Shown one piece after another: positions 12,612 through 53,635 of a stretch of DNA of 64,000 nucleotides. The DNA comes from Nitrospirota bacterium. GTDB taxonomy: Bacteria; Nitrospirota; Thermodesulfovibrionia; Thermodesulfovibrionales; UBA9159. Numbering within the stretch: position 1 is the stretch's first letter; every line of letters starts with the position of its first letter. The stretch is from assembly GCA_963699545.1 (NCBI GenBank), contig CAVOUE010000003.1:640001-704000 (forward strand). Direction: 5' to 3'. The notes under the pieces were generated by a model that saw nothing but the letters and a program-made list of their open reading frames with translations, made no database searches and was not told the origin of the DNA. Position numbers and translations under genes: made by a program.

Positions 12612-12634
12612 TCTCCCTCTCCGGCCCCCTTGGG

Positions 12635-14365: not shown

Positions 14366-14472
14366 CGAGCAGGGTTCGAGGATTCACGGGGGCCAGGGTT
14401 CCAGGGGGAAAACAAAGGGCGTCCTTTCGTCGGCTCTCTCACTTCGTCCCTCGGACCCTTGAACCCTGCGGT

Positions 14473-27412: not shown

Positions 27413-27876
27413 CCCTTTCCAACAGGACACATAACTGAAAGAGGTTGGCATGCCTGACGAGGAAAGGGAAGGGGTTGAACATGAGAGGTGAAGATCTCAA
27501 TTTCAGGGATACCCAACATCTCAGAGGCACTTAGTGTCTAGCCGACGGGGGTTACTCCAATTAAGTTTGGAGTCCCACAATATATTTATTATTGAAAGAT
27601 GAATGATATATATAAAGGCCTTGCAGTTCGCTTTCGACCATGCGGTGCCACATGCCTCCAAATGTCTGTATTGTTCCAATCAGCCTTCCGCTGATTATGA
27701 ATTCATCACCCTGATGATTGGCACTCGCAGTCGCTGGTGAGATTGCGGCGGTGAAGGAGATGTCATGGTCTGTCTGGGGGAAATAGGGATGTGTTGTCCC
27801 TGATATTCTCACGGATTATGCTTGACTTCTATAGGCTCATATGGTCTAATGATTTAAATAATCTTTGGAGGGAAAG

Positions 27877-30763: not shown

Positions 30764-30950
30764 TGTTAAGGTACAACTCAAGAAAATGAAAGGAAAAACT
30801 GTGCGCTTTTTGCGAAGGCGTCCCTTTTTATCCCCGCAAAACTATCTGTTGTCAAAGAACAGTTCATATAAGGCTTTATTCAACAAGCCTTTTTTGCCTT
30901 TTGCGAACCTCCAGCTGAACCCATGTGAGCCCATAGTTCGCAGAACACAA
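30764..30950 (-). promoter_or_regulatory. CRISPR leader
   Basis: AT-rich non-coding stretch between cas2 and the first repeat, with a TGCGAAC...GTTCGCA inverted motif typical of I-C leaders. Confidence 0.8.
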
Positions 30951-31241
30951 TCATATGAGCAAAGGACCTTCTTGATCTAAAGCCTCTTTGGCCCCCACAT
31001 GCTCAACCCGATTATGCCAATTGGAACCCAGATAATAAAATCGCAGGCTGTCTTTCTCCGTATCAATCTCGGAAATCAGCCTTTCTTTCAGCATGGTCCA
31101 CTGCGCGGGATCGACAATACATTCAAACACCGAGTACTGAACTCTTTGTCCGTAATCTTGGCAGGTCTTCGCAACTCTGCGCAGCCGCCGCTGTCCCGCA
31201 GGAGTTGTCGTCGCCACATCATAGCTGACAATTACAAGCAT
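30951..31241 (-). CDS. cas2: CRISPR-associated endonuclease Cas2
   Basis: VSYDV...RRLRRVAKTCQDYGQRVQYSVFEC...DSLRFY. Confidence 0.97.
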   Translation of the reverse strand: MLVIVSYDVATTTPAGQRRLRRVAKTCQDYGQRVQYSVFECIVDPAQWTMLKERLISEIDTEKDSLRFYYLGSNWHNRVEHVGAKEALDQEGPLLI

Positions 31242-31250
31242 GGGTTATCC

Positions 31251-32282
31251 TCATTTCCAAATAAACGGCGGATAACTGTCAATATCTCCCCTGAGGTAAC
31301 GCGCCATCAACAGTGCCTGCGCATAAGGCAGAAGACCGACCGCCATCTTCTCCTTGAGAAAAGGATGCTCTATCTCCTCCTGCTTGCGTTTCTGATAAGC
31401 GACAAGGACCGTCTTTCTCGTGTCATCATCCATCCATACCGCCCCTGATTCCTTCTTCTTGAAGCCCTTGGCCTGCACCTGAGAGAGATTGATCAGAGAA
31501 AGAGTGAGCCTATCAGCGATAAACGGCCTGAACTCTTCCATAACATCGAGCGCAAGACTGTATCGCCCCGGCCGGTCCCTGTGCAAAAAGCCGACGGCCG
31601 GATCAAGCCCGACAGACTCAAGCGCCGAACGCACATCATGCATCAGGAGCGTATACAGGAATGACAGCAGGCAGTTGACGCTATCCAACGGAGGCCTCCG
31701 ATTGCGATCACAAAATGTAAAATCATCCTTTTGACACGTTATTAGGTTCCCAAAGACCTCAAAATAAGCGTTCGCCGAATCGCCTTCTATCCCGCGCAAA
31801 ACATCAAGAGGCAATTCGAACTGCAATCTTCTCATTGCGTTTGAGAGCGTCTGCGAGGCTGCTATAATTGCCTCCGAAGCGATCTTTTCCGAATGGTCTC
31901 TTAACGCCCGCTGAAGTACTGTCCGGCAGTTTGCGATCTTGCCTGTCACCATGGCGCACGCAATCGACGCGGATGCTGCCAGGTCATCGGCGCGGCGATA
32001 CTGCTCACGTCTCAGAAGGACATTGCCCGATACAGGCCCCTGGACCTTTGCGAGGAAGCCGCCGTTTTCCGTAAGAAAGCTTATCGAAACATCATTTTCT
32101 GCACAGAACCCCATGAGATACGGGCTGCACGATACCTGTCCGAAACAGACAATCCCGCCGAGTGTGTGAACAGGCACGCGGAGAGCAATTTCCCCGTCGA
32201 TTTTGACGGCAACTGTCTCGCCTTCCTTTGCGAGATAGGCTCCCTGAGTTGTTACAAAAAGAGTATTAAGCAGTTTCTTCAT
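31251..32282 (-). CDS. cas1: Type I-C Cas1
   Basis: MKKLLNTLFVTTQGAYL, LRGIEG, RRPPLD, GFLH.DRPGR.SLALD.MEEFR, YPPFIWK. Confidence 0.97.
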   Translation of the reverse strand: MKKLLNTLFVTTQGAYLAKEGETVAVKIDGEIALRVPVHTLGGIVCFGQVSCSPYLMGFCAENDVSISFLTENGGFLAKVQGPVSGNVLLRREQYRRADDLAASASIACAMVTGKIANCRTVLQRALRDHSEKIASEAIIAASQTLSNAMRRLQFELPLDVLRGIEGDSANAYFEVFGNLITCQKDDFTFCDRNRRPPLDSVNCLLSFLYTLLMHDVRSALESVGLDPAVGFLHRDRPGRYSLALDVMEEFRPFIADRLTLSLINLSQVQAKGFKKKESGAVWMDDDTRKTVLVAYQKRKQEEIEHPFLKEKMAVGLLPYAQALLMARYLRGDIDSYPPFIWK

Positions 32283-32908
32283 TCCGCCCTCAGCACGTTT
32301 TGCAAATACGAACTTGCCGACTTCGCCTTGCTACATGTTTTTGGAATACACAAATCCAGCAGTGAACATTGCTTGCACTTCTTCGAATATTCGGCTTTCG
32401 GTGTAAGCCCCGACGCTATAAGCTCACGTACTTTCTTGGCAGTGTCGTCCGTCTCCATCCTCAGTTGAACGTCGAAGACAACGTCCTGCCTTCGCCGTGT
32501 CTGCCCGTAAAAGAGAGCGCCTTCCTTAATATCAACATTCAGCATCTCCTCAAGGCAAATCGCCTGTGCGCAAAGCTGAACCTTATCGCAGTCATCCATC
32601 TTCGGTTTTCCGCGCTTGTATTCTACGGGAAAAGGAATCCATGAGCCGTCATCCATCTTATGGAATTCGACCACATCCGCCTTGCCGATAAGCCCGAGCC
32701 TGAGCGACCGCAGGGGAACGCTGTAATCTATACGGACATTCCCACGGGATTCGCATTTGTTACTATCAGCCTTCTCGTGCATGATCCTGCCCTCTGCCGT
32801 GAATAGGTTCTCAGTCCATATTTGCTCAATATGGATCAAAGCACAACGACGCGAGCAGTAAAGGTAATGGTTCAGCGCTGAGAGCATTATCGGTTCAAAA
32901 TCACCCAT
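32279..32908 (-). CDS. cas4: Cas4 exonuclease
   Basis: YC.RR, GKADVVEF, PVEYKRG, QLCAQ, C-terminal CxxCSLxxxC. Confidence 0.96.
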   Translation of the reverse strand: MGDFEPIMLSALNHYLYCSRRCALIHIEQIWTENLFTAEGRIMHEKADSNKCESRGNVRIDYSVPLRSLRLGLIGKADVVEFHKMDDGSWIPFPVEYKRGKPKMDDCDKVQLCAQAICLEEMLNVDIKEGALFYGQTRRRQDVVFDVQLRMETDDTAKKVRELIASGLTPKAEYSKKCKQCSLLDLCIPKTCSKAKSASSYLQNVLRAE

Positions 32909-32917
32909 ATCACCCCT

Positions 32918-35191
32918 CTAAATGCAGCAATGATCGTCAAAGTTCGCCAGATTGAGTACCCCAGCCATATAGCCAAGAAAGTCATCATATTCCAGCATCC
33001 AAAAATATAGGTCACCTGCTCCTTGAAGCGGCATAACACCATATTGAGACGCTTTCCAGCTATAAATCGCAACGGTTTTCTGCTGTAATTCTTGCGGCTC
33101 AATTTCTTTCCGGCTCTCACGGTCTTCAAGTCGCTGTCTCAGGTCATCATCTACAAGAACGGAAATAGTATTTGAGGCAATGACCTTGAATTTCTCTTCA
33201 ACATTGGGAAATTTCCGTGCCTTCTCGTCTTTTACAATTGGATCGTCGTCACATAGTCCCTGATTGAGGTCGCGGACTTCACGCCGCATCGCTTCCTTAC
33301 AAAAGTCAGGTGATATCTTTTGTTCTTTATACAAATCAGCCAATATGCGCGCTGACGTTCTAAACGCTGGATGCTCCTTGAGCAGATCTCCTGCCTTGAT
33401 TTTGAATATCCATAACTCGGAGGTGCCGAATTCTCCTGATCTGTTAGCCCTGCCGGAGGTCTGAATGGTACTGACCAGACTGCACTGTTCGCGCGCCGCC
33501 GATTTAAACGAAAAATCTATCCCTGCCTCGACGCATGAAGTGGCAACAAGCGTCCAATCAGTGTCGTTTTTATCTTTCAGACGCCTTTTTATTCGATCTA
33601 TGGTTATCTTGCGATGAATAGGGGCCAGCGCAGTAGATAAGTGTTCCACCTTGTCTTTATCGCCATTACGATAGCAGTTATGAAGCAGACCCTTTTGAGC
33701 ATATTCCACCTTGTTTCTATCATGCCGTCTTGCCATTTCTTTTGCTACTGCAGCAGCGGACTGGACCGTATTGAGTAGGACAAGACGGGGGCCGGGCAAT
33801 TCGGCAATCCAATCACACAATCCTTCAAGCGTGAGGGGATCATCTTTCATTCGATAGACAATTCGTTTCTGCTCCGAGTCTATTGTAGAAGCACGTACAG
33901 AGGGCGAAACCAATTCAAGTAGCTGGATTTTAGGAGAGGCAAATTCTTCCAACTCCCAAAAACGTGTGAGCGAGCCGGAAGCCATAACGATGTAGCAGCC
34001 CCAATCTTTTACAAGCTCCTGGAGCCATTTCCAAGCCTGCGGCCAGAGATGTGCTGGCAAAGCAGCATGGGCTTCATCAATAAAAATCGCGGAACCGGCC
34101 AACTGGTGCAATTTACGGAGTGTAGCGGGGTGATTGCTGGCAATGGTTTCAAAGAACTGCACGGCGGTCGTAACCGTAACCGGTGCATTCCAGAGAAAGG
34201 AAAATGCCCGGTTTGCCTCTTCCTCGAAATCGGCCTTATGGTGGTGTGCGGCAACCACCTTTTCCTGCTTCTCTCCGTCCAACACCAGCGCCTTCCGGTA
34301 GACCTCAACCGATTGATCAATAATGTTAGTGAACGGAAGGACAACAAAAACACGCCGTAGCCCCTTCTGTTTTGCAACGTTGAGCAAATGAGCCATAACA
34401 GCAGTCGTCTTACCAGTGCCAACCGGGCTATCACATGCAATCAACCCATTCTCGGCTGGTTGAGCTGTGCGGCAAGCATCATAAACTTGTTGCCGCAAAT
34501 CGTTACGTTCTCGACTATCTTTGTTATCTGTCGCCAATCCTGCAACATATTGGTCAAGAGCCGCAAGCCGCAACTCAGCAGTAAGCGCCACTTCCCCTTC
34601 AGGAACGGTGTTGCCATAATTGCGCGCCGTATCGGTATGGTCTGCATCCACAAGGCATGACAGGGCAAACCTTAAAAATGTTGGCCCCGGTGCTCGCCCT
34701 TTAGGGAAATTGGGACTGGACCCAATTTCAGCTTCATGATTATTGATATAATCTTTCAGTTTTTCATCAGTAATTTCTCTTACTGTCTTTTCACCGATTT
34801 TCGCACGAGTACGCACCCTGAACGGATACAGCTTGGATTTTTCTTCATATATTGAAGGTAAACCCACATGATGGGAGAAGATGCACACGGCGGACGGAAT
34901 TGATTTCTTTTCTAAAAGATAAGCGGCACCTGCATCCCAATGATCTACCGGAAGGGACTGTCTTGTCTTCACCTGAAGCACCTGTTGGTTGGCTTCATCA
35001 ATTTTGCCTAGGTCGTGGTATTCGGCAGCGGCGCGGACGGTTGATAATAAGAGAGCATCAAACCGAGTATGAGGTGCAATTTGGGAGGCGAATTCCAAGG
35101 CCCTTCTGACAACTTCAGATACATGCTGTTTGTAGGTCTGTTCTGGGCACCCAAACCTTTCACTGTGCGCTAAGAGAACTTTTCGGTTCAC
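32918..35191 (-). CDS. cas3: Cas3 HD nuclease/helicase
   Basis: AHS..H, HDLGK, LVDAD, PVGTGKT, DEAH, QTSGRANR. Confidence 0.95.
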   Translation of the reverse strand: MNRKVLLAHSERFGCPEQTYKQHVSEVVRRALEFASQIAPHTRFDALLLSTVRAAAEYHDLGKIDEANQQVLQVKTRQSLPVDHWDAGAAYLLEKKSIPSAVCIFSHHVGLPSIYEEKSKLYPFRVRTRAKIGEKTVREITDEKLKDYINNHEAEIGSSPNFPKGRAPGPTFLRFALSCLVDADHTDTARNYGNTVPEGEVALTAELRLAALDQYVAGLATDNKDSRERNDLRQQVYDACRTAQPAENGLIACDSPVGTGKTTAVMAHLLNVAKQKGLRRVFVVLPFTNIIDQSVEVYRKALVLDGEKQEKVVAAHHHKADFEEEANRAFSFLWNAPVTVTTAVQFFETIASNHPATLRKLHQLAGSAIFIDEAHAALPAHLWPQAWKWLQELVKDWGCYIVMASGSLTRFWELEEFASPKIQLLELVSPSVRASTIDSEQKRIVYRMKDDPLTLEGLCDWIAELPGPRLVLLNTVQSAAAVAKEMARRHDRNKVEYAQKGLLHNCYRNGDKDKVEHLSTALAPIHRKITIDRIKRRLKDKNDTDWTLVATSCVEAGIDFSFKSAAREQCSLVSTIQTSGRANRSGEFGTSELWIFKIKAGDLLKEHPAFRTSARILADLYKEQKISPDFCKEAMRREVRDLNQGLCDDDPIVKDEKARKFPNVEEKFKVIASNTISVLVDDDLRQRLEDRESRKEIEPQELQQKTVAIYSWKASQYGVMPLQGAGDLYFWMLEYDDFLGYMAGVLNLANFDDHCCI

Positions 35192-35194
35192 AAA

Positions 35195-36226
35195 CTACTC
35201 CCTCATCAAGTCCATTAGATCTCGGATGTTTGTTGGCTTACCTTCTAAATCCTTTAGTTCTTTTAGCTTGCCTTTGAAATCTTTTAAGATATCCGGATCC
35301 TCAAGTGGGTTTGGGATTAAATATTCATTTCTCTCAGCAGAAGGTTTGTCTTTATCCTTCTCTTTCTTGGGCATCAGCACGTCTATCAGGTCAAAGTCGT
35401 TGAAGGTGCCTCTTTGATTATTGTGTTCCACATACCAAGCATGTAATACCTTAACTTGATTTCGGATTAAGGATGGATTGTGCGAATAAACGTAGGGAAT
35501 CAACTCCAGAGCAACATCAACGTCTGTCTTTGTACAGCCTGACTTACTTGCCGGCGTCGGGTTGACAAAAAATGGGATGGCATATATCCCGTGTTCAACA
35601 AACTTGAAGGCACCTGGTGCCATTCCCGCAGTTTTTCCTTCCTGCACACCAGCTTTATTGGTAAGTGTAAAATCCGTCCGTAGTTCTATCGGAGCCACAG
35701 ACAGGCCAAGTCCGAAATGGACTACGCCAGTCTTTACGTTTCTCTTTAAAGCAATGGTCTCTTCCGTTTTTGCATTCTTACCTTTGCTTGTTTTCTTGGT
35801 CTGTTTTTCTCCGGCGGTTGTGCTTTCTTCTGTGTCGCCTTCTGCCTCCTCAAGGAATGTATTCCCAAAAATGCGGCCATCCCAATACTGCTGGACAAAC
35901 CGTTTTTCTTCAAGAGGCTTGGAATCGTCATCAACAATCATTTTCTTAATTTCGCCCCGCGTTCTATCACGTTCTTCCAGAATTTGAAAGCGAGTTTCAT
36001 TCACATCGAATTTATTTTGCAAATAAAGCCAGATTGGCCCTTTTTTATTTCCAACAAGATCTCTCATTTTGCGCTTAACTGATACTGGAGAGATTTCTCC
36101 AATATCCCCGCTACGTCTTCTTGGCGCTCCGTCCCTTTCCGGGTCACCGTTTGGGTTAGAATTGCGCACCTCAACTATAATCAATCCTGTTGCTCTTGGA
36201 ATGTCTGTGCTAATTGTTTTACTCAT
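35195..36226 (-). CDS. cas7: Type I-C-like Cas7 (Csd2), divergent
   Basis: NSNPNGDP....PR, SPVSVKRKMRD, YWDGRIFG, TGVVHFG. Confidence 0.88.
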   Translation of the reverse strand: MSKTISTDIPRATGLIIVEVRNSNPNGDPERDGAPRRRSGDIGEISPVSVKRKMRDLVGNKKGPIWLYLQNKFDVNETRFQILEERDRTRGEIKKMIVDDDSKPLEEKRFVQQYWDGRIFGNTFLEEAEGDTEESTTAGEKQTKKTSKGKNAKTEETIALKRNVKTGVVHFGLGLSVAPIELRTDFTLTNKAGVQEGKTAGMAPGAFKFVEHGIYAIPFFVNPTPASKSGCTKTDVDVALELIPYVYSHNPSLIRNQVKVLHAWYVEHNNQRGTFNDFDLIDVLMPKKEKDKDKPSAERNEYLIPNPLEDPDILKDFKGKLKELKDLEGKPTNIRDLMDLMRE

Positions 36227-36654
36227 GTTTTTTGTGCCTCCTTATTGTTATTTTGTAGTTCCGTACTACTTTCTTTTGAGGGTTCTTCCTCTTTTACGCC
36301 ATAAGAAAGGTATCCTATGATCAACTTCGCCTTACCCGCATTATCAATTTCTTTTGGAATTTGGGTCTCTGTCAGCCTGGCTGTAATTTCAGCGATGTCC
36401 TTAAGGCAGTTTTTAGCCGCTTGTCTTGAAATCGTGTCAGGCTTCACTCTCTTGGCCCATGAAAAATATGGGTGTGTCAATCGTTTATTGAGGGATATGA
36501 AAGCTTCCAGTGGATTCTGAAGCGCAAGAGATATGTAGTCATTACCGATTAGACGAAGCGGAACATCTCCTTTTCTCACATCAAGTGAATATTGAATATG
36601 AAGCTTGTCTGCAACTGCGAAAAACCTTCCAAGGTAAAATACATCTTCATTCAT
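36223..36654 (-). CDS. cas11: Putative small subunit Cas11c translated from inside cas8
   Basis: In-frame ATG at 36654 preceded by AAGGAGGT-ctat; 143 aa starting MNEDVFYLGRFFAV. Confidence 0.7.
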   Translation of the reverse strand: MNEDVFYLGRFFAVADKLHIQYSLDVRKGDVPLRLIGNDYISLALQNPLEAFISLNKRLTHPYFSWAKRVKPDTISRQAAKNCLKDIAEITARLTETQIPKEIDNAGKAKLIIGYLSYGVKEEEPSKESSTELQNNNKEAQKT

Positions 36655-38493
36655 ATAGACCTCCTTTCTAATTCCTTTTTTTTGTAAAAGCAGACCGTAT
36701 AGTGTCGGAAGCATGTGCAAATAATCGCTGTCTTTGAAAGTTATCTTTTCTGCGGCTGCATTCATCTTCGATAGAATGTGAGCCTGAGCACCTTTTATCT
36801 TAAGCTTCTCTATTTCAACTTTCATTGCTGCTTTTAATTTGGCGGTTATAAGAGCATGAGCACTCTTCTCTAGGACATTTTCAAGACCTGAGTCAACTCG
36901 TGCCCGAATTGACTCATCCTTCTCAAAGAGAAAATCCAGCGCATCAGAAGAAGTAAATCGTTTTGAAATTGGCATTTTCTGTTTGCCTTGTTTTCGCGTA
37001 ATCATCTCGCCATTTTGTCTCCATGCGCTATTCAGAAGCCAGATAGCTCGCGTTGGATAAATCTGTAGAGCGCCCTTTAGGACCTTTTCTTTTTTAAAAA
37101 ACCAGGGCAATACCACTTTGGGAATATTTTTGCATCCTTCCTGCCAGCGGCGAGCACCCGACATGTAGTATCGAAGTGGATAACGTCTAGAGGCAAGAAT
37201 CTTAGTATTGCCTTTGTCCACTGATGCGATAATGCCGATCACAATCTCTGCTGCCGGTTCGCTTTCGGCAATACCTTCGAATGTCTTCAACGCAGCTCCA
37301 GTAGCCTCTTCGCTTATATATATATTCTCTTGATCCTCAGCGTCATCACTATCAAAAATCCGTATCGCATTAGTGTTCATTAGCTTTGTGCAGTAGGCAA
37401 AGGCCACAGTGTTTCTATTTTCATATTTCCTGAGGCTTATCCATGTAATCCCTTCCCGGTTCTGGTCAAGAACATATTTCAAAGTCTTTCTTGCTAACTC
37501 CCTTGCATTATGTCCTGCAGGGAAAAGATCAGAGCTTGCAAGGCCGTAACGCATCAAACAAGGAATCTTTTCGAATGCGGCAAAAAGCTTTATCCGACCA
37601 AGTCCTTTACTATCGATGTTGTCATATTTCTCTGTCGCGCCAGCCATATCAAGACCAAAGGCATCCTTCCGCCCAACGGGCTTATTTGCCTTACTGCTTT
37701 GTTGTTCAAAGGTACGGGCCATCCATGTCTGCAAATTGCTGTGGTACGGAGGGAAACGCTTCTCTCCATATTCAGGTTTATCCCAATCTTTTATAGACAG
37801 GAGAAAGAGAGAGTCTCTACTGTGTTCCTTTCCACGTTCTTTCTTTTTGCCCTCTTTTTTGAACGCAAACAGCATTTCCGCGAAGTCCTTTTTCCCGGTG
37901 TCCCGTAGTTTTTTCATGAAAATGTCCCGAACCTCGTCTCGAAATTTGTCCGGCTGACAAAGACCTGATCTTCTGACCAGTTCTTTATATGCGCTGTATC
38001 CTCCCGGTTTTTCCGTAGCAGCTTCCAAATATTTTTGTTGCAGTTCATTTGGCAGTTCATTAAGACATCGTCCTATTAGCTTTAAATCATCTTTCCAAAG
38101 ATCATTACATCCCTTAATGAACGCTTGAAACTTAAGCTCCTCGATCTCTTCTTCCCGCTTGCCTTCTGCTTTACTTTTATCTCCCTTCTTTTGTTTTTCC
38201 TTAAGAGACTTAATTATGAATTTTGGTACCATGGACAGCTCACAGGTCACTTCATAAAATGCTCGGCAATTAATTACAGGGAAATATGGACCCGTGTTAC
38301 CTGTTTCCCATCTATAAACAGTTTCCATGCCGAAGTCTGGTATATCTGCATCTTCAACGTGCCCATCTCGGTCAAGGTATATTATGAAAGCCTTCTTGTT
38401 GGGAGAGCAACTTTTGAAGTTGGGATGCGATTCCCCAAAATCACAACCAAGTGCTTTTAATAGAGTGTTGGTTTCAATCCATTCATTCAGCAT
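36223..38493 (-). CDS. cas8c: Large subunit Cas8c-like protein, highly divergent (756 aa)
   Basis: Position between cas5 and cas7; C-terminal FYLGRFFAVADKLH resembles the Cas8c/Cas11c YxxGRLFA motif. Confidence 0.7.
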   Translation of the reverse strand: MLNEWIETNTLLKALGCDFGESHPNFKSCSPNKKAFIIYLDRDGHVEDADIPDFGMETVYRWETGNTGPYFPVINCRAFYEVTCELSMVPKFIIKSLKEKQKKGDKSKAEGKREEEIEELKFQAFIKGCNDLWKDDLKLIGRCLNELPNELQQKYLEAATEKPGGYSAYKELVRRSGLCQPDKFRDEVRDIFMKKLRDTGKKDFAEMLFAFKKEGKKKERGKEHSRDSLFLLSIKDWDKPEYGEKRFPPYHSNLQTWMARTFEQQSSKANKPVGRKDAFGLDMAGATEKYDNIDSKGLGRIKLFAAFEKIPCLMRYGLASSDLFPAGHNARELARKTLKYVLDQNREGITWISLRKYENRNTVAFAYCTKLMNTNAIRIFDSDDAEDQENIYISEEATGAALKTFEGIAESEPAAEIVIGIIASVDKGNTKILASRRYPLRYYMSGARRWQEGCKNIPKVVLPWFFKKEKVLKGALQIYPTRAIWLLNSAWRQNGEMITRKQGKQKMPISKRFTSSDALDFLFEKDESIRARVDSGLENVLEKSAHALITAKLKAAMKVEIEKLKIKGAQAHILSKMNAAAEKITFKDSDYLHMLPTLYGLLLQKKGIRKEVYMNEDVFYLGRFFAVADKLHIQYSLDVRKGDVPLRLIGNDYISLALQNPLEAFISLNKRLTHPYFSWAKRVKPDTISRQAAKNCLKDIAEITARLTETQIPKEIDNAGKAKLIIGYLSYGVKEEEPSKESSTELQNNNKEAQKT

Positions 38494-39136
38494 AATTTAG
38501 CCTCCCATTCTCAATCGTCCGCCCAGAGAGGCTCTGCACATACTTTGGATCGCAGACGCTGGTTTCAGAATCAAACACACAATATAGGAATGACGATAAG
38601 GTTTCATTAATAGATGTTTGCACCTTTCTGTTTTCAATATCATTTCTGATATGACCTACGTAATTAGGTACAAACTCACGCCATCCGAGACAGGGGATAT
38701 CATAAAACTGGCCCTTATTAAGACGCCTATTAAAGATTTCTTGGCAAGCATGTTGTGAATTAATTTTACTAAGTCGTGAGGCTTCTGCAAGGCTTTTCGG
38801 TACATATTCGAAATTTTCAATTCTTGCGTAAAGCCTATAACAAACGTTGATTAGAACAGTAGCCTTATGTTGAAAAGAATCGTTTTTCGTAATTTGGTCT
38901 CCTTTCCTAAGCGGGCCACCGTAGTTCGTAGTGTAATCGTGGTAAATTATCGGGGCACAGATCTCAACAGCGGTCGGGTTGATAATTACATTCTTCAAGC
39001 GTGCAATTGACTCAAAAATACCCTTTGCCGCTGACCATGGCGGCACAGGATAGCTGATCGGTGTCGCCCCTGTATCCGGCCTTGTCCACATTGCAGTCGG
39101 ACCAGAAATTTCAAGTTTTATTTCGTATGGTTCCAT
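38483..39136 (-). CDS. cas5: Type I-C Cas5 (Cas5d)
   Basis: LEISGPTAMWTRP, SYPVP..SAAKGIFESI, PCLGWREF. Confidence 0.9.
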   Translation of the reverse strand: MEPYEIKLEISGPTAMWTRPDTGATPISYPVPPWSAAKGIFESIARLKNVIINPTAVEICAPIIYHDYTTNYGGPLRKGDQITKNDSFQHKATVLINVCYRLYARIENFEYVPKSLAEASRLSKINSQHACQEIFNRRLNKGQFYDIPCLGWREFVPNYVGHIRNDIENRKVQTSINETLSSFLYCVFDSETSVCDPKYVQSLSGRTIENGRLNYAE

Positions 39137-44116: not shown

Positions 44117-45905
44117 TTATTTTACTTTCAGCACCGACAGGAATGCCTCCTGGGGGACCTCGATCCTCCCCACCTGCTTCATCCGTTTCTTGCCTTCCTT
44201 CTGCTTCTCGAGCAGCTTTCTCTTTCGCGTGATATCCCCGCCATAACACTTTGCAAGGACGTCTTTTCTCAGGGCCTTGACGCTCTCTCTGGCGATGATC
44301 TTGGACCCGATGGCCGCCTGTATCACCACTTCGTAGAGTTGCCTCGGGATGACCGCCCGCAGTTGTTCGGCGATCTGCCTGCCCTTATAATACGCCTTGT
44401 CCCTGTGAACTATCAAGGAAAGGGCGTCCACCGGCTCTCCGTTCAGCAGGATGTCGAGCCTGGTGAGGTCCGCTTCGATGTATCCGACAAACTCGTAATC
44501 CATTGAGGCATATCCCTTTGACAGGGATTTAAGCCGGTCATAGAAATCCCAGAGGATCTCGTTGAGGGGGATATCATAGACGACCTTGATCCTGTCCTTG
44601 CCGATATAGGTGAATTCCTTCTGGGTCCCCCGCTTTTCCTGGCAGAGGTCAAGGATGGAGCCGATAGAGGACTGGGGCACAAATATCGTCACCTTCACGA
44701 AGGGTTCCTCGATCATAAGAAACCCTGCAGGCAAGGTGGTCGGGTTGTCCACAAAGATGACATTCTCCTTCGCATCCGTGACCCGGTATACTACGGTGGG
44801 CGCAGTGCTGATGAGGGAGAGGCTGAACTCCCGCTCAAGTCTCTCCTTAATGATCTCCATATGGAGAAGCCCGAGGAATCCGCACCTGAAACCGAATCCC
44901 AGGGCAGTGGAGGTCTCCGGCTCATACGAGAAAGAGGAATCGTTAAGGCGCAGTTTTTCGAGGGCATCCTTCAAGCCCTCGTACTGATGGGTTTCTGTAG
45001 GGTAGAGTCCGCTGAACACCATGGGCTTTATCTCTTTGTACCCGGGACAGGGTTCGGCGGCAGGGCGGTCTGCATCGGTGATGGTATCCCCTATCTTGGT
45101 GTCGCTGACGCTCTTTATCCCCCCGATGATATAACCGACCTCTCCGGCGGAAAGCTTTTCAACGGGCTGCATCTTCGGCGAGAAGATCCCCACGTGGGAG
45201 AACGTCAAAGTCCTTTCCCGTGCTCATGATCCGTATCTTCATCCCGGCCCTGACCGTGCCCTCAAAGACCCTCACAAGGACAATGACTCCCTGGTAGTTG
45301 TCAAACCATGAGTCAAAGAGGAGGGCCTTGAGAGGGTTGGCCTCATCTCCCCCGGGCGGCGGGACCTTCCTTACGATAGCCTCCAGGATCTCTCTTGTGC
45401 CTATCCCCTCCTTTGCGCTTGCAAGGATGGCATCCGAACTCTCTATGCCGACAATATCCTCTATCTGTTCTTTGACCCTGTCAGGTTCGGAGGCCGGAAG
45501 GTCGATCTTGTTTATCACGGGGATGATCTCTAGGTTGTTCTCCATGGCAAGATAGGTGTTCGCGACGGTCTGGGCTTCAACGCCCTGGGTGGCGTCCACG
45601 ATAAGAAGCGCGCCTTCGCAAGAGGCAAGGCTCCGGGAAACCTCGTACGAGAAGTCCACGTGGCCCGGGGTGTCGATGAGGTTCAGCACATACTCCTGAC
45701 CGTCCCCGGCGGCGTAGGCGAGCCTGACCGCATGCGCCTTTATGGTGATCCCTCTTTCCCGCTCAAGGTCCATGGAGTCAAGGACCTGCTCCATCATTTC
45801 CCGGGAACTGAGCGCCCCCGTATATTCCAGGAGCCTGTCAGCGAGGGTTGATTTGCCGTGGTCGATATGGGCGATTATCGAAAAATTTCTTATGTTCTTT
45901 GGCAT
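44117..45905 (-). CDS. lepA: Elongation factor 4, frameshift near 45200
   Basis: [51 protein letters not shown]. Confidence 0.97.
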
Positions 45906-46864: not shown

Positions 46865-47719
46865 ATGAAAGCGAGCGTGAGGAGACTTGGGGTCCATACT
46901 TCCATCGCGGGCGGCATCCATCTTTCCCTTGAAAGGGCGGGGGAATTGGGGTGCACTACTGTCCAGCTCTTTTCCCATAATCCGAGGTCCTGGCGGGTTT
47001 CCCCCATACCTGCAGGCGGAATTGCGAGGTTCGGGGAACTGAAAACTGCCCTCGATATCTTTCCTGTTTTCATCCACACATCGTATCTCATCAACCTTGC
47101 CTCGGCAAGACCTGATGTCCTGGAGAGATCAATAGGACTTCTCATCCAGGAAATGGACAGTGCGGATCTGCTGGGTGCTGACTATGTTGTCCTCCACACC
47201 GGCAGCGCGTCACAGGACGATGAAGAGACCGGCCGAAGGAGGGCGGTGGAAGCCCTCAGGGCGGTTTCCCGGAGGGGTCGCTGGAGGGCACGCCTCCTGC
47301 TCGAAAATACCGCAGGGGAAAGAGGCGACATATCATCCCGCATCATTGACCTTGCAGTGATCATGGACAAGACCGGGGGCGTGCTCATAGGGGGGATATG
47401 CCTGGATACCTGTCATGCCTTTCAGGCAGGGTATGAACTGTCAAGGGAAGAAGGCGTGGCCGAGATCGCTGGAGAGATCGAACGTCACATGGGGCTTGAG
47501 AAGGTAAGGCTGATTCATCTCAACGATTCAAAAAGGACATTCAACTCAAGGGTCGACCGGCATGAACATATCGGTTCCGGCGCAATCGGCACCGAGGGAC
47601 TGGGGAAGTTCATGAACCATGCCGCGTTCAGGGACGTCCCTCTGATCCTCGAAACCCCGAAGAAGAGCGACGATGACGACCCGAGGAACCTGAGAATTGT
47701 AAGGGGGCTTTTCAGATAA
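46865..47719 (+). CDS. nfo: Endonuclease IV
   Basis: GVHxSIAGG, HxSYLINLAS, LENTAG, CLDTCH, HLNDSK, DRHEHIG, ILETP. Confidence 0.95.
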   Translation: MKASVRRLGVHTSIAGGIHLSLERAGELGCTTVQLFSHNPRSWRVSPIPAGGIARFGELKTALDIFPVFIHTSYLINLASARPDVLERSIGLLIQEMDSADLLGADYVVLHTGSASQDDEETGRRRAVEALRAVSRRGRWRARLLLENTAGERGDISSRIIDLAVIMDKTGGVLIGGICLDTCHAFQAGYELSREEGVAEIAGEIERHMGLEKVRLIHLNDSKRTFNSRVDRHEHIGSGAIGTEGLGKFMNHAAFRDVPLILETPKKSDDDDPRNLRIVRGLFR

Positions 47720-48003
47720 GCGTATCATCCTCCGCGCAGTTTGCGGTTCCGCTCCGGTATGAGCGTTACACCCCGCTACTCCTCACTGTGGACATTCCGC
47801 CACAGTAACAATTACCGTTACTACTCCTCGCACGGGGCCACTATTACATCTGTGGTGTTCACTCCGAAAGTCACCGCCAATGGACATGTGCATCGGTGGG
47901 AACTTGCTTTCGAAACAGGCTGGAGCTGAAAATAAGAGCCGCTGTATATTTGGCAGCGATGAGAAGGGAATCAGAAATCAATGCGATGTTGCTTATGCCG
48001 CGT

Positions 48004-48297
48004 TTAAACTGCAATAGCCTCAACCAGTTTCCAGTCATCAGACCTATGTGATGCCTGCCATAGATCGTAATTCCGCTGCATGTTAAGCCAAAGTTCAGGG
48101 GTTGTCTTAAACGCCTTTGATAAACGAAGAGCCATGTCCGGAGTTATAGAAGCATGTTCATTTACAATCTCGGACAAAGTCTTTCTTGACACGCCGAGAA
48201 CTACTGCAAGTCCGGAAACCGTCAGGGACAGGGGCTCCATGTAATGCCTTCTCAAAATGCCGCCCGGATGCGTCGGGCGCCTCAGCCTTTTTCTCAT
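48004..48297 (-). CDS. higA: HigA antitoxin
   Basis: PTHPGxIL, LGVSRKTLS, ITPDMALRL, TPELWLNMQ. Confidence 0.95.
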   Translation of the reverse strand: MRKRLRRPTHPGGILRRHYMEPLSLTVSGLAVVLGVSRKTLSEIVNEHASITPDMALRLSKAFKTTPELWLNMQRNYDLWQASHRSDDWKLVEAIAV

Positions 48298-48309
48298 GTC
48301 TTCACCTCT

Positions 48310-48588
48310 CTAATGGTAATCGATATATTCGACGTCATATGCGTTGCCTTCTTCAAATCTAAAGACAACCCGCCAATTTCCTGAAACTTTTACGGCCCAG
48401 CGACCTTTCATCTTGCCTTTAAGTTGATGAAGATCAGATCCCGGGAATTTCATGTCTTTGATGTCTTCCGCAGCATCAAGCCTGTCGAGAATATCCGCCA
48501 GCTTTTGAGCATGAATCGCCTGGATACCCTTTTTTATCTCGTCATAAAAGAAGTCTTCCAGTCCCTTATGAGAGAAGGACTTAATCAT
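48310..48588 (-). CDS. higB: HigB toxin (RelE superfamily)
   Basis: MIKSFxHKGL, LHQLKG, WAVKVSGNWRVVFRF, YIDYH. Confidence 0.95.
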   Translation of the reverse strand: MIKSFSHKGLEDFFYDEIKKGIQAIHAQKLADILDRLDAAEDIKDMKFPGSDLHQLKGKMKGRWAVKVSGNWRVVFRFEEGNAYDVEYIDYH

Positions 48589-48599
48589 TTATGTATTAA

Positions 48600-48626
48600 T
48601 GTAACCCGCAGGGTTACAAATGTCAA
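48600..48626 (-). promoter_or_regulatory. higBA promoter with palindromic operator
   Basis: TTGACA-N17-TACATT on the minus strand; TGTAACCC-N3-GGGTTACA palindrome at 48600-48618. Confidence 0.75.
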
Positions 48627-49045
48627 GAAGAAAAAGGTTAAACGCTCAACCTTTCCGATGTTCCATTTGAAGTAGCCGCAGGTCTTAGCCTTTATTTCAA
48701 CCCGAATTATGTTCATTCAAATACATCCAGTACACTGCACTATTTCGATCACAGGCACTCACGGTATTATGGTGAAATGACAGGGGGGTCGGGCATATTC
48801 CCCATTATATATGCGGAGAAAGAAAACATCTGATAGCTGTAAGTTTACGGTCTTCACTTCCTATCCCCACAAACTCGCTCTGGACGCCTTTTAGAAATCC
48901 TTACCTTTATTAATCATGGATAATTGCAATGAAAGGCATAAAAATTGCCTATATTTCAAGTGCTTTTCCTATAAGCTGGCTCATGAATAAGGAATGGCAA
49001 ACTAAATTCGTCGCTATATTTCATGAATAAAGGGGAAAGAATGTT

Positions 49046-49702
49046 ATGAAAAGGATAGGCATTTTATTAAGCGCCTTGATCATGGTGTTTGGGCTATCTG
49101 TCTCTGCGTATGCAACGCTCCAGGACATGGGAGATGGGACGATTTATGACACTACCACGCAGTTAAGTTGGCTGAAGAATGCCAATACGGCAGGGTTGAT
49201 GAATTGGAGTTCAGCCGTTGCCTGGGCAGCAGGTTTAAACAGTGGCAGTGGCTTTGCGGGGTTAACAGGCTGGCGGCTTCCGAATACCTCTCAGCCGGAT
49301 ACGAATTGCAGTAATAATTTTGACCCCGGTGGAGGCTTTCAATATTCTGGATATAGTTGCACCGGTAGTGAAATGGGATATTTGTACTACGTTTCACTGG
49401 GCAATGCGGCTGGCGGTCCATTGACCAACACAGGCCCATTTACAGACTTGCAGGCCCCCAACTACTGGTCAGGTACCGCGTATGCGCCGGATCCGACTGT
49501 CAACGCATGGTCCTTCGGTTTCAACGATGGCGTCCAGGGCATCGGCGATCAGAGCGGTGGCTACTACGCCTGGGCAGTGCGTCCCGGGGCAAGAGGATCA
49601 CAAGCATCGCCTGTACCGGCAAGTGGGACGGTTGGCCTGATCGGCCTCGGACTGGCAGGGCTGGTAATAGTCGGGATGAGGCTTAGGAAGGCAACCAGGT
49701 AA
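49046..49702 (+). CDS. DUF1566 (Lcl-type) surface protein with C-terminal sorting signal; DGR target gene
   Basis: Signal peptide; GDGTIYD...LSWLK, GWRLP, YWSGT...AW.F.F...YAWAVRPG; tail PVPASG + TM helix + RLRK. Confidence 0.9.
   Translation: MKRIGILLSALIMVFGLSVSAYATLQDMGDGTIYDTTTQLSWLKNANTAGLMNWSSAVAWAAGLNSGSGFAGLTGWRLPNTSQPDTNCSNNFDPGGGFQYSGYSCTGSEMGYLYYVSLGNAAGGPLTNTGPFTDLQAPNYWSGTAYAPDPTVNAWSFGFNDGVQGIGDQSGGYYAWAVRPGARGSQASPVPASGTVGLIGLGLAGLVIVGMRLRKATR
49449..49587 (+). repeat. DGR variable repeat (VR)
   Basis: Manual alignment to 50370-50505: about 27 substitutions at template adenines, about 7 at other bases, one 3-nt indel. Confidence 0.9.
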
Positions 49703-49771
49703 CGATACGATAGCGTCCCGGACATGGGCGCTTTGGTGATTTGGATTATTTGGTAATTTGTTTTTTGGGGT

Positions 49772-49791
49772 GCAGGGGGAATTCCCCCTGC
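49772..49791. other. GC-rich perfect palindrome downstream of the DGR target (candidate homing hairpin)
   Basis: GCAGGGGGAATTCCCCCTGC. Confidence 0.65.
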
Positions 49792-49827
49792 CTTCGCGTA
49801 ATTTTTTAAAAGGGTTGAGCATCAGCA

Positions 49828-50232
49828 ATGGCCAGGTATGAACATTTGCCGATCGACAAGAAGGCCATGGATGTGGCGGTCCACTTCGAAAAGGTGGTTG
49901 CCGGGTTCAGCCGGTATCACAAATACACCCTGGGCACAGAGCTCCGCAACAAGAGCAGGGATATTCTAGGTCTCATAGTGAAGGCAAACTCCTCTTCTGA
50001 TAAACTGCCTCATCTTCTTGAATTGCGCGAGAAGGTCGAGGAGCTTATAATCCTGATTCGCTTATGCAAGGAGGTGAAGGCATTTAAGAGCTTTGCGGCT
50101 TTTCAGTTTGCCGTCGAAGAGGTAATCTCAGTAAGCAGACAGAACGAGGGATGGCTTAAGAGTGCTGGAACAACAAAAAGGGGGCCGGAATCACCTAAAG
50201 GAAATGAGCGAGATCATTCTTCCTTCAGGTGA
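49828..50232 (+). CDS. avd: Avd-like four-helix-bundle accessory protein
   Basis: LPI.KKA.D, F.R.HKYTLG.ELR, ...IRL...SRQ.EGW; located between VR and TR. Confidence 0.8.
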   Translation: MARYEHLPIDKKAMDVAVHFEKVVAGFSRYHKYTLGTELRNKSRDILGLIVKANSSSDKLPHLLELREKVEELIILIRLCKEVKAFKSFAAFQFAVEEVISVSRQNEGWLKSAGTTKRGPESPKGNERDHSSFR

Positions 50233-50369
50233 GCGTGCCGAGATCGATCATTGTGCGTCTGTCCCGCTTGCGGCTGATGCAAGCATGACTATACAGGACG
50301 GGATACCGTTTGGCGGATTCCCGCCCGGTGGGGCGGAGGAAAAGCTCTGCCAGAAGTGGGCAGACAATA

Positions 50370-50505
50370 TGCAGGCCAACAACTACTGGTCAGGCACTGA
50401 GTATGCGCCAAATACAACAAACGCGTGGAACTTCAACTTCAACAATGGCAACCAGAACAACAACAATAAGGACACCAACAACTACGCCTGGGCAGTGCGT
50501 CCCGG
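50370..50505 (+). repeat. DGR template repeat (TR)
   Basis: AAC/AAT-codon-rich copy of the VR (NNYWSGTEYAPNTTNAWNFNFNNGNQNNNNKDTNNYAWAVRPG). Confidence 0.92.
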
Positions 50506-50628
50506 CGCAAGATCACAATCACAAGCATCGCCTGTACCGGCAAGTGGGACGGTTGGCCTGATAGTAATGGGACTGGCAGGGCTTGGGGTAATTATCTATT
50601 CGAGGAAGAAAAGAAGCCTGAATCAAGA

Positions 50629-51183
50629 ATGTCAGAGATAGCGGAGTCAAACAATGACCAGAAAGGAGCGGTCTCGGGAAATACGCAATTCCTGAGGACG
50701 GCCCTCCTGTTTTGTTCTGTAGTTGTCCTTCTTGACCTCTTAGTCTGGTATCTCGGAAGAAAAGAATATCTGGCCTTTCTCGACATCATTACCTCATGGG
50801 TTGTTGCAAACCTCATCCAGTTCTCCGGTCTTCAGGTAATCAGAGACAGCAATACAATTTACCTTGCGCACAGCGAATGGGTGGTCACCACTGAATGCAC
50901 CGCAATTTTCATCATGCTAATCTTCACATCCTTTATCCTGGTGTACCCCTCTTCCGTTAAGGCAAAGGGCCTCGCGCTTCTCACAGGAATACCCTTCATC
51001 TTCGGGGCTAATATACTGAGGCTTTTTATGATGGCGTGGATAGATAAACTCAGGCCTCAGTATACAGAGTATTTTCACCAGTACATCTGGCAGGTGGTCT
51101 TCATCGTGATGGTCATTTTCATGTGGCTCTTGTGGATTGACAAGGTAGTGAACCGTGAAACCAGGGTATCTCTTCCTTCTTAA
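50629..51183 (+). CDS. Exosortase/archaeosortase-family protein (XrtH-like)
   Basis: Multi-TM protein with Cys-Arg-His triad: VTTECTA, NILRL, FHQYIWQ. Confidence 0.85.
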   Translation: MSEIAESNNDQKGAVSGNTQFLRTALLFCSVVVLLDLLVWYLGRKEYLAFLDIITSWVVANLIQFSGLQVIRDSNTIYLAHSEWVVTTECTAIFIMLIFTSFILVYPSSVKAKGLALLTGIPFIFGANILRLFMMAWIDKLRPQYTEYFHQYIWQVVFIVMVIFMWLLWIDKVVNRETRVSLPS

Positions 51184-51649
51184 ATTCCTGGGATATTCCC
51201 TGGTCCTGTTTGCTTTCGGGCATCAACTGCTGCACGGGTATGCAGCGTTACTGAGGGAGGGAATGGACCTGCTGAACCCAGATTACCATGTTCCAACCGT
51301 ATTGAAGATTTTCTCTACGGCTCCTCAATGACGATAATCGCATTCATTGCCCTTGTGCTTGCGACACCAAGGATCTCCGGCAAAAAAAAAGACAGGTGTT
51401 ATTGGTATCGGTCTTATAGCGTTCTTCCTCACCGACTGGCTGTTTATTCAGTACGTGATTTTCCCGACAGGACAACCACCGGCAAATGAAGACTCTCCAG
51501 CCTTTGAGATGTACCTGTGCGCTAAATGGATCTTGCCGTTCCTCATGTGGATAATTCCATGCTATCCGTTTCTCGGACATTTTTTTGCAACCACCAAGAA
51601 GGTTCCTGAGGATGCGATTACGGACTGCCAGAGCCGCAACGATTCTTAG
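51155..51649 (+). CDS. Exosortase-associated membrane protein, frameshifted
   Basis: GTG start overlapping the exosortase; hydrophobic segments (FIALVLATP, WILPFLMW) spread across frames. Confidence 0.6.
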
Positions 51650-52156
51650 TTTGTATCGATAATCTTCGTCTTTCTGACCAATTGATTCTGTGTAGTAGCG
51701 GGGGAAGCTAATACGGGGAAACCTTTCAGTGTAAGAAGGGCATCCGCGTGTGTAGTGCGGTCGTTACGGTAAAAGTTTCTCCACGAACTCTTGATTGACC
51801 ACGTCGGTACTCAACATTTGTTTCCGAAAGAATCTCTCACCTGTGGTAGAAAAGCGACAGTGTTAATAACAGGAAGTAGTCTTGCCTCTCATCTCCACCG
51901 ACTAACAACCGTGGTTCAATTAATTGCAACAATGAAGATTTCCGAGAGAAGTCTGCGGTAATAATGAGTTCGGCGGCTTAGCCGCTGAAAGATTGGTTGT
52001 GGGACCATTTTCCTATTCTCTGTTACTTATTAAGTTGTCTAAATTGTCAACATTCCATATTTGCCAGGTCTCCAAAATAGCATTCCGGAAGTTTGATAAG
52101 AAGAGAGAATTTCACTCTTTCTCATGCCTGTGTTGAGTAAGGACTTCCGACGTTTT

Positions 52157-53635
52157 TTACGTATACGCATAATCATTATACGCCAGCATTTGCAGGATCT
52201 TTGTAATTCTGTAACGCTTGCTAAAGATATTGGGCATTACTTTGATGATGAAAACAGATCGTTCCCAGTTGAGAGAAAGAAGCAGGCTGGCCATACGGAG
52301 CGCAAAAAGCAGACGATAGTGGAACTTTATAGGGTCAGCTTCATTTTGCTGAAGCCAGAAGCCCAGATCCCCGAAATATCTTAGCCTCCGATAGATCGAC
52401 TCAAAAGAGTAGATGCTCTTGTTCACCTTTTCGAATCCCGCCAGGAGCTCTTCGGGAGTCAGATTCGCCGGCTTGAAGACGACATTCTTTGTGTCATACT
52501 TACTCCAGTCTTTATGAATAATGCGTCTTTCCTCTTCAAGCCGTTTAAAGAGCTTGGTCCCCGGAAACGGGGTGAGAATGTTGATGATAGGCTCCATTAT
52601 ATGGGCCTCATCGATAAAGGCGATCAATTCATCAAAGGAGTCCCGCGTGTCGAAGTCATAACCCAAGATAAATGATCCGAGGATTAGCAGGCCGTGTGAA
52701 TGTATTTTTTCGATCGCCTCCAGATAGTTGTGCTTCATATTAACGTTCTTAGACATCGCCGACAAATTCTTTTCTGAAATGGATTCAAAGCCGATAAAAA
52801 CAGAACCGCAGCCGGCCTCTTTCATCAGTTTCATCAGATCCTCATGCCGGGAAAGATTAATTGATGCCTGACAGCCCCATTTGATATTCAGCGGTTTCAA
52901 TGCAGCAAACAACTTGCGGGCATAAGGTATGTCCGCGATGATATTATCATCAGCGAAGAATATCGCTTTCCCCTTGTTTTTATAGCGGCCGCTTGCGAGG
53001 TTCAGGGAATTGATTTCCTCTATGACCCTCTCGACCGGTTTATGCCTGATCGTCTGCCCATCAAAAGCGTGCACGGAACAGAATTCGCAATGAAAGGGAC
53101 AGCCTTTCGTAGTCTGCACGAAATCATTGATATATTTCGTACTATCGAGTTGTGACCTGTCCGGAGGCTGAGCGGCAGCTAAATCTGCAAGCCCATCAGC
53201 CTTATAAGTCCTCTTTAGGGCGCCTCGTTGGGCGTCCTCGACGAGTTTCAGCCAAACCTTCTCAGCCTCACCGATTACAACGGCATCGCAGTAGAGGATC
53301 GCCTCTTCCGGGCACATGGAAGGGTGTATTCCTCCCAACACCGTCCTGGCCCCGCCCTTCCGAAAAGTTTCCGATATCTCATAGGCCCTCTTGGCATGCA
53401 TTGTCCTCACGCTTATGCCGACCAAGTCCGGTTTCCACCCGTAATCAATATCTTCTATGTTTTCGTCGAAAACCCTTAGGGTGTGTCCATGAGGCGTTAA
53501 AGAAATCAGGGCAGGTATTGAAAGCATATAGGAGTAATATTTTCTTGAGCACAGGAATTTGGAAAAGAATTTGTAATCGTAATAACTCTTTTCTTTTTCA
53601 GAGAAATTCTTGGGCATAACAAATGCTATTTTCAC
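52157..53635 (-). CDS. B12-binding radical SAM protein
   Basis: VLGGIHPS, GEAE, TKGCPFHCEFC, DDN, GFES, TPFPGT. Confidence 0.92.
   Translation of the reverse strand: MKIAFVMPKNFSEKEKSYYDYKFFSKFLCSRKYYSYMLSIPALISLTPHGHTLRVFDENIEDIDYGWKPDLVGISVRTMHAKRAYEISETFRKGGARTVLGGIHPSMCPEEAILYCDAVVIGEAEKVWLKLVEDAQRGALKRTYKADGLADLAAAQPPDRSQLDSTKYINDFVQTTKGCPFHCEFCSVHAFDGQTIRHKPVERVIEEINSLNLASGRYKNKGKAIFFADDNIIADIPYARKLFAALKPLNIKWGCQASINLSRHEDLMKLMKEAGCGSVFIGFESISEKNLSAMSKNVNMKHNYLEAIEKIHSHGLLILGSFILGYDFDTRDSFDELIAFIDEAHIMEPIINILTPFPGTKLFKRLEEERRIIHKDWSKYDTKNVVFKPANLTPEELLAGFEKVNKSIYSFESIYRRLRYFGDLGFWLQQNEADPIKFHYRLLFALRMASLLLSLNWERSVFIIKVMPNIFSKRYRITKILQMLAYNDYAYT

Follow-up and report, generated by a model that had tools for sequence, protein, structure and literature searches.

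The DNA described here is a window of 64,000 nucleotides (64 kb) from a Nitrospirota bacterium (NCBI GenBank assembly GCA_963699545.1, contig CAVOUE010000003.1, positions 640,001 to 704,000 of the forward strand), and positions are counted from its first letter. The part of interest carries components of a diversity-generating retroelement (DGR). A target gene with a C-terminal sorting tail (target 1, tail 1) is followed by the accessory gene avd, by a conserved structured element, and by a template repeat (TR), all on the plus strand. The TR continues in frame, from 50506, into a second sorting tail (tail 2), and behind it lie a short exosortase-family gene and a split gene for a membrane protein (Table 1). 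A preliminary description made from the letters alone had reported this continuation and gave two accounts of it: either the gene for the reverse transcriptase (RT) had been deleted and had left a scar, or the TR was translated.

Table 1. Features of the DGR locus in the window and of the related locus L038 (each numbered in its own sequence).
Feature	Position	Strand	Description
Target gene 1	49046-49702	+	218 aa; Lcl_C/DUF1566 domain; C-terminal sorting tail; signal-peptide-like N-terminus by eye
Variable repeat VR1	49449-49594	+	aligned to the TR; adenine-biased substitutions
Sorting tail 1	49595-49702	+	..GSQASPVPASGTVGLIGLGLAGLVIVGMRLRKATR then stop; holds 45-bp block 49597-49641
ATTTGG-type repeated motif	49732-49760	+	3' of target 1; present after relatives' targets
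Perfect 8-bp GC hairpin, 4-nt loop	49772-49791	+	3' of target 1; DNA fold
avd, DGR accessory gene	49828-50232	+	134 aa, intact; between VR1 and TR
Apparently accidental ORF across spacer, TR and tail 2	50162-50641	+	159 aa from GTG; 90 aa from ATG 50369
Conserved structured element 5' of TR	50180-50368	+	begins inside avd 3' end; comparative RNA fold
Template repeat (TR)	50370-50505	+	rich in adenine and AAC; native up to ...GTGCGTCCCGG; aligned to VR1
Putative recombination junction	50505-50506		TR-type on the left, VR-flank/tail-type on the right; from comparison with relatives
Sorting tail 2 and stop codon	50506-50641	+	read as remnant of a lost second target; 45-bp block 50518-50562
Short exosortase-family gene	50629-51183	+	184 aa, full length for the short type; start overlaps the stop of the TR-tail ORF
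Exosortase-associated membrane protein	51155-51649	+	split in at least two frames; pieces 51155-51331 and 51347-51649
L038 avd	9953-10366
L038 targetA	10368-10928
L038 TR	11253-11388
L038 RT	11323-12867
L038 targetB	12879-13688		C-terminal sorting tail
L038 exosortase	13828-14355
L038 membrane protein	14327-14767		146 aa

Target 1 matched the Pfam family Lcl_C (E = 1.8e-18, residues 31-179), begins with MKRIGILLSALIMVFGLSVSAYA, which resembles a signal peptide by eye, and is 68 per cent identical to a full-length relative of 224 aa (P0238). By eye, the extreme C-terminus is built alike in both tails, of a motif, a hydrophobic stretch, and a basic cluster. This is the arrangement known from PEP-CTERM/exosortase sorting, in which a C-terminal motif, a hydrophobic helix, and a basic cluster end a secreted protein, and here too an exosortase gene is adjacent. 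The window differs from that system in three respects. Its motif is VPASG in place of PEP; neither target 1 nor the open reading frame (ORF) across TR and tail 2 matched the PEP-CTERM model (PF07589/TIGR02595) at E <= 0.01; and its exosortase, which passed the family signatures (TIGR04178, 58.7 bits vs 23; Pfam Exosortase_EpsH, PF09721, 47.1 vs 25.7), stayed below the cut-offs of all named subtypes (archaeosortase B (ArtB) 68/150, XrtX 63.5/170, and XrtH 50.2/86 bits).

The Avd protein scored under the curated cut-offs of both of its profiles (Pfam bAvd, 39.5 bits, cut-off 40; NCBIfam DivGenRetAVD, 42.4, cut-off 80). Despite these scores, its identity to the avd genes of relatives marks it as the DGR accessory protein. 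There were 1335 Avd homologues, and a scan of genome contigs with the window's Avd gave 78 Avd-related loci (L-numbers below), to whose avd genes it is 48-79 per cent identical over the best tblastn segment. In relatives these genes precede the TR and RT.

Of the thirty-five substitutions between the TR and the variable repeat (VR) of target 1, VR1, twenty-seven are at TR adenines. Within 50370-50512 (143 bases), 27/51 adenines and 8/92 other bases differ from VR1 (Fisher p = 8e-9). Such a concentration of differences on TR adenines is the pattern of a DGR repeat pair, and the two segments are therefore the TR of a DGR and its VR1. No third copy of the repeat occurs within the window. The in-frame translation of the TR has 59-83 per cent identity with relatives' TRs in the part that is TR (up to query residues 1-46). 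The pair also differs at the eight non-adenine positions, compared with 0-3 in most intact relatives, and by two indels, both in-frame: VR1 has 3 extra nt at 49498-49500, and GGA stands against a duplicated TCACAA at 50513-50517. Together these go beyond the level of intact relatives and look like signs of decay. As had been described, the homology to target 1 continues past the variable zone, since the whole match of the TR region is 223 bp long (blastn E = 2e-45) and reaches the tail. The ATG reported at 50369 is there as well (50369-50371), and it falls in the conserved (V/L/M)Q codon pair that opens every TR and VR of the clade.

The structured element before the TR is homologous to the pre-TR spacers of twelve relatives in one alignment and of twenty-four in another, with loci from L001 to L068. 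From twenty-five sequences RNAalifold predicted eighteen pairs, fourteen with compensatory changes, and a long-range helix closes just before the TR. By our own reading of the alignment the window keeps 18/18 of the predicted pairs. Neither the avd-TR spacer nor the TR matched Rfam at E <= 1. In L031 and L038 a target gene parts avd from the TR, and there the structured element accompanies the TR, not avd. Promoter and terminator predictions across 48600-52200 were uninformative, as sites were no more numerous than in shuffled sequences.

The usual layout of the clade is target-avd-spacer-TR-RT, with a TR of 125-150 bp and nearly all TR/VR mismatches at adenines. RT was present in 55 of the 78 loci, and in the fifteen loci compared its match begins 7-28 nt past the end of TR/VR homology. 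TR/VR identity ends at ...GT(N)CG(N)CC(N)GG in 14/14 inspected relatives, and its CC(C/G)GG corresponds to 50501-50505 in the window. Past this end, TRs go on with A(G/T)AATGAT, the start of RT, and VRs go on into a tail (e.g. GDVAAVPEP, a hydrophobic stretch, an Arg cluster, and a stop). The homology of the window to twelve aligned relatives spans from about 50180, inside the avd 3' end, through the spacer and the whole TR to ...GTGCGTCCCGG at 50505. At this point the TR of all twelve continues with A(G/T/A)(A/G)ATG... into the RT start, whereas in the window it is followed by CGCAAGATCACAA..., sequence of the target-flank and tail type. The window's TR thus changes to VR-flank or tail-type sequence exactly where TR/VR identity ends in its relatives. 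By this comparison the avd-TR unit on the 5' side is native, which places the break at 50505/50506. Targets of the clade often carry sorting tails but their TRs do not, so a TR with a tail is atypical for the clade.

The two tails begin alike. The preliminary description gave 50518-50562 and 49597-49641 as identical, and they are; these 45 bp are the first part of a 66-nt repeat at 92 per cent identity. The adenines of the block are unchanged between the copies, so it was not copied by mutagenic homing. It may be a gene-conversion tract between the tails, or may reflect a DNA-level constraint common to both targets. In L057, L058, L029, and L017, the two VRs of one element share 50 to >150 bp of flank beyond the TR homology. 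We also considered the block as a cis-acting hairpin and rejected this, the DNA folds of both copies being no better than those of shuffled sequences (z = 0.35 and -0.06).

Past 50583 tail 2 departs from tail 1 but retains the hydrophobic helix and the basic cluster. Its type (...GLIIMG..GL.L.YGRRK.) also ends the full-length P0238 and the fragment P0121, while P0122 ends in the tail-1 type, and we take it to be a genuine tail type. Since tail 2 is unlike tail 1 here and like these relatives, it is better explained as the 3' end of a lost paralogous target than as a decayed tail 1. The same difference bears on another account of the locus, in which the TR would have been copied locally from the 3' end of target 1 together with its tail, and would never have stood beside an RT. 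Although the 223-bp homology with its perfect 45-bp block speaks for such an origin, we consider it highly improbable: besides the divergent end of tail 2, a widespread clade has a homologous spacer and TR, and there the TR abuts RT, so the state in the window is the derived one.

P0122 (85 aa, on a 145-kb contig) is VR-like and shares its start, MQA, with the TR ORF of the window. Over its first half the tail of P0122 is similar to tail 2, and the final ten residues are those of tail 1, a mixture that hints at recombination of two tail types in a close relative. P0122 can be an orthologue of the TR-tail ORF or, equally, a target of which the C-terminal part alone was called, with an internal TTG taken as the start.

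The frame across the junction, after passing the TR, reads ...PVPASGTVGLIVMGLAGLGVIIYSRKKR... and has ...PVPASGTVGLIVMGLAGLGVIIYSRKKRSLNQECQR at its end. The stop (50639-50641) overlaps the exosortase start, as had been noted, lying 13 nt inside the gene that starts with the ATG at 50629. The alternative put forward in the preliminary description was that an Asn-rich anchored mini-protein is made from this frame, which might act, for example, as an exosortase substrate or decoy. The frame is open over 50162-50641, has a plausible sorting tail at its end, and its overlap with the exosortase gene would permit translational coupling. No possible start, however, precedes a hydrophobic or signal-peptide-like stretch (by eye), and the Pfam match is confined to positions 68-117 of the 117 in the Lcl_C profile. 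A functional mini-protein is unlikely, because the ORF shows no signal peptide by eye and holds only this last part of the domain (50 of 117 positions). Moreover, its ATG is the conserved first codon of the TR/VR homology, and its many Asn residues reflect the AAC signature common to all TRs. A search with the TR-tail peptide retrieved 252 proteins, of which 114 hold a TR-like Asn-rich segment, and just two of these (P0123 and P0124) go on into a sorting tail, so the TR-tail form is not conserved. On the same count we rejected a recurrent, conserved family of TR-tail proteins, the cases being rare and scattered. All told, the mini-protein claim finds no support, and we give it very little credence.

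No DGR-type RT is encoded beside the TR within the 64-kb window. A Pfam scan of fifty-one large ORFs across the window gave no RVT_1 or other RT, and tblastn of five clade RTs against the whole 64 kb found no RT or RT fragment (best E = 0.08). Among the 78 loci, RT is missing from fourteen despite at least 2.5 kb of sequence after avd, and it is truncated in L016, L018, L022, L024, L026, and L027. Three of the loci, L016, L017, and L018, are related copies on one 5.7-Mb contig. L017 is complete; L016 and L018 consist of avd, ~87 nt, and an RT without its first ~93 residues, and have no TR. Clade RTs combine RVT_1 with a weak match to Pfam MutS domain I (MutS_I) in their C-terminal ~100 residues (5/5 full RTs, L001, L002, L004, L016, and L018; E = 1e-8 to 7e-5).

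We think it likely that the fused TR and tail are the scar of a deletion of ~2 kb that removed RT, brought about when the TR recombined with the VR of a downstream target, and that the DGR is dead. The locus is most likely a decayed element and not a new gene. The ancestral order was probably target1-avd-TR-RT-target2-exosortase-membrane protein, in which the TR and the VR of target2 would have formed direct repeats on either side of RT. A homologous crossover between them, placed in the ~25 invariant bp that end the repeat (50481-50505), would have cost about 2 kb, namely RT together with two thirds of target2 from its 5' end. It would have joined the intact TR to the tail and stop of target2, which already abutted the exosortase start. 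The product would be a DGR remnant without RT, most likely inactive, with a frozen target 1 and with avd and the RNA element before the TR still intact; the ORF across TR and tail would have come about as a by-product of the deletion.

A deletion between TR and VR2 that took RT and most of target2 had been suggested in the preliminary description, and it gains support from the comparison of 78 loci, with the junction exactly at 50505/50506. The proposed ancestral order is also found among relatives. In six loci (L035, L039, L047, L057, L058, and L062) a VR upstream of avd is joined by another downstream of RT, which gives the order target-avd-TR-RT-target2. The exosortase end of the order is seen in L038, which reads avd-targetA-TR-RT-targetB-exosortase-membrane protein. 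Its TR and the VR of targetB (VR-B) differ at twenty-three positions, 23/23 of them adenines, and this DGR looks active on targetB. Recombination of its TR with VR-B would delete ~1.9 kb and yield the layout of the window. The window's exosortase is 53 per cent identical to L038 13834-14346 (E = 9e-57), and the 146-aa protein encoded behind the L038 exosortase is matched in residues 1-45 and 77-141 by the pieces of the window's membrane protein. A TR-tail-exosortase junction without RT in orthologous loci, which had been named in advance as evidence against a deletion, was seen in none of the 78 loci compared.

Several observations weigh against this deletion. The perfect 45-bp block sits badly with the 8/92 non-adenine divergence next door, since at that rate the chance of zero mismatches in 45 bp is P about 0.017, and an extra assumption is required to explain it. 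The absence of RT covers the 64-kb window out of a 903-kb contig. Tail 2 is without the ATTTGG motif and hairpin seen after other targets, and nothing comparable follows it. Lastly, L038 belongs to another subclade (Avd 59 per cent identical; TR end VRCVRGG, not AWAVRPG), and it is the one locus of the 78 in which tblastn with the window's exosortase found a relative. In the window's own subclade, 0/38 scanned ORFs 3' of RT were a target or an exosortase (from seventy ORFs found in twenty-one selected loci, of which twenty gave ORFs and nineteen were sampled), and tblastn with target 1 over the 78 loci found no downstream target there. An intact orthologue of the postulated ancestor was therefore not seen.

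The motif that tail 2 lacks is a GGTNATTTGG-like repeat found 3' of targets in the window (49732-49791) and in most inspected relatives, including L038 (10962-11000 and 13315-13350). It is placed directly after the VR, even within coding sequence, or after the sorting tail and stop, and a GC-rich hairpin is usually next. The motif may serve recognition at the DNA level. The window's hairpin lies ~180 nt beyond VR1, past the tail and stop, and its role in the DGR is putative.

Two relatives have independent TR x VR rearrangements and no RT. In L030, avd and the conserved spacer lead into a diversified repeat of VR-like type, behind which come a sorting tail and the post-target motif, and the whole island lies within a duplicated mfd 3' end. 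The TR of L033 runs into the downstream flank of the VR and a copy of avd residues 1-40, and the 10 kb to either side hold no RT. In both L038 (8355-8735, 15574-17118) and L030 (918-1889, 4174-6723) the DGR island is flanked by a duplicated end of the host gene in which it lies. For L030 this is the mfd 3' end, and for L038 it is the 5' end of a gene that by eye is comM/Mg-chelatase-like. Both islands have toxin-antitoxin-like genes at their edges. In the window, a HigB/helix-turn-helix (HTH) pair (48004-48588) lies just 5' of target 1, and no flanking direct repeats that could serve as island ends were found in 47500-52400 beyond the TR/VR repeats.

Fused repeats can also be produced by an assembler. 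If the genome truly reads TR-RT-target2-exosortase, the invariant 3' segment common to TR and VRs could have let the assembly jump from the TR to the 3' end of VR2. TR-tail fusions of this kind are found on short metagenomic contigs and could be such artefacts: P0123 is on a contig of 987 bp, and P0126, a chimera of a spacer-TR 5' half, a VR-like 3' half, and a tail, is on contigs of at most 1314 bp. With P0124 they are all on contigs <2 kb and are thus possibly assembly chimeras. The window, in contrast, is part of a 903-kb contig, and only ~25 bp (50481-50505) are common to its TR and any VR, because the rest of the repeat differs at adenines. Its assembly does hold indel errors or pseudogenes. 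lepA (44117-45905, minus strand) is frameshifted in a CCC run near 45190, and the membrane protein behind the exosortase is split, with an A run (~51378-51386) some 30 nt inside the ORF start of its second piece; either gene may be broken by a homopolymer sequencing error or be a pseudogene. Frameshifts in homopolymers would, however, suggest a long-read assembly, with reads that span 2 kb and are unlikely to collapse it, and the non-adenine divergence and indels between TR and VR1 fit a dead element. We therefore regard a mis-join as unlikely.

A different question is whether the remaining parts still work, as a satellite whose avd and TR are transcribed and whose TR is copied by a DGR RT encoded elsewhere to diversify target 1. 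Much of what this would need is in place, in that avd is intact, the pre-TR RNA element keeps all of its predicted pairs, the TR retains its adenines (51/143 bases), and the motif and hairpin follow target 1. Genomes with several related copies, some of them partial, do exist (L016-L018). Yet homing would erase the eight non-adenine mismatches and two indels that separate TR from VR1, and the window has lost what the clade has 3' of its TR, namely the RT 5' end, and holds no RT within 64 kb. In the Bordetella phage element, RNA 3' of the TR is required for priming. A working satellite is thus quite doubtful. The same doubt attaches to a bolder idea, in which TR x VR recombination would be a built-in, recurrent self-destruct route of DGRs, leaving RT-less avd-TR modules with intact structured RNA that an RT elsewhere could use, and the window would be a satellite DGR for an exosortase-anchored hypervariable surface protein; we hold this to be a long shot.

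Elsewhere in the window, 27865-28689 (plus strand) encodes a secreted-looking protein of 274 aa with an IPTL-CTERM-type C-terminal signal, which differs from the exosortase signal of the DGR target. A CRISPR-array-like segment with repeated peptide words in all frames (29500-31000) adjoins a cas operon of Cas1, Cas4, Cas3, Cas7, and Cas5d (31251-39136, minus strand).

DGRs with DUF1566 targets form category 'd' of Wu et al. (2018; PMC5758913), with the Legionella element as an example. As portrayed in the relevant passages of that paper, they share with the window an avd gene, a TR rich in adenine, TR/VR differences specific to adenines, and a target of the DUF1566/Lcl_C kind with the VR at its C-terminal end. 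The window departs from them in having no RT and a TR fused to a target-type tail, and the Legionella target has a lipoprotein anchor where targets of the window's clade have exosortase-type sorting tails. For the Bordetella phage BPP-1 DGR, the target requirements given in the passages of Guo et al. (2011; PMC3240598) are the initiation of mutagenic homing (IMH) sequence and a hairpin. The two elements have in common the homology needed at the VR 3' end, and a GC hairpin (4-nt loop) 3' of the target. The BPP-1 hairpin directly follows the VR, whereas that of the window stands behind tail and stop, and unlike in BPP-1 as treated there, the TR of the window's clade abuts the RT start and has a conserved structured RNA 5' of it.

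In both the window and L038, two unrelated genomes, a short exosortase of unnamed subtype and a membrane protein of ~146 aa with no Pfam family stand directly behind a DGR target (window 50629-51649; L038 13828-14767), and by this placement the exosortase appears to be dedicated to the adjacent target. No relatives of the exosortase were found on plasmids by tblastn. Our search of a literature library found no relevant paper that combines a DGR term with 'exosortase' or 'PEP-CTERM', and we thus did not find in print the link described here, a widespread DGR clade whose small DUF1566 targets bear exosortase-type tails.

DGR remnants without RT are already known. Vallota-Eastman et al. (2020; PMC7517822) describe remnant TR-VR homology at Nostoc all3226 with no RT gene or pseudogene near, which they read as loss of the diversifying parts. 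There, as in the window, TR/VR-type homology persists without a nearby RT. Unlike all3226, the window keeps its junction, and its relatives point to TR x VR recombination, a route that is not proposed in that paper's passages on all3226. What the present locus adds is a junction clean enough to reveal the route by which RT would have been lost. Given the independent events in L030 and L033, this suggests that the TR-RT-target arrangement is inherently unstable.

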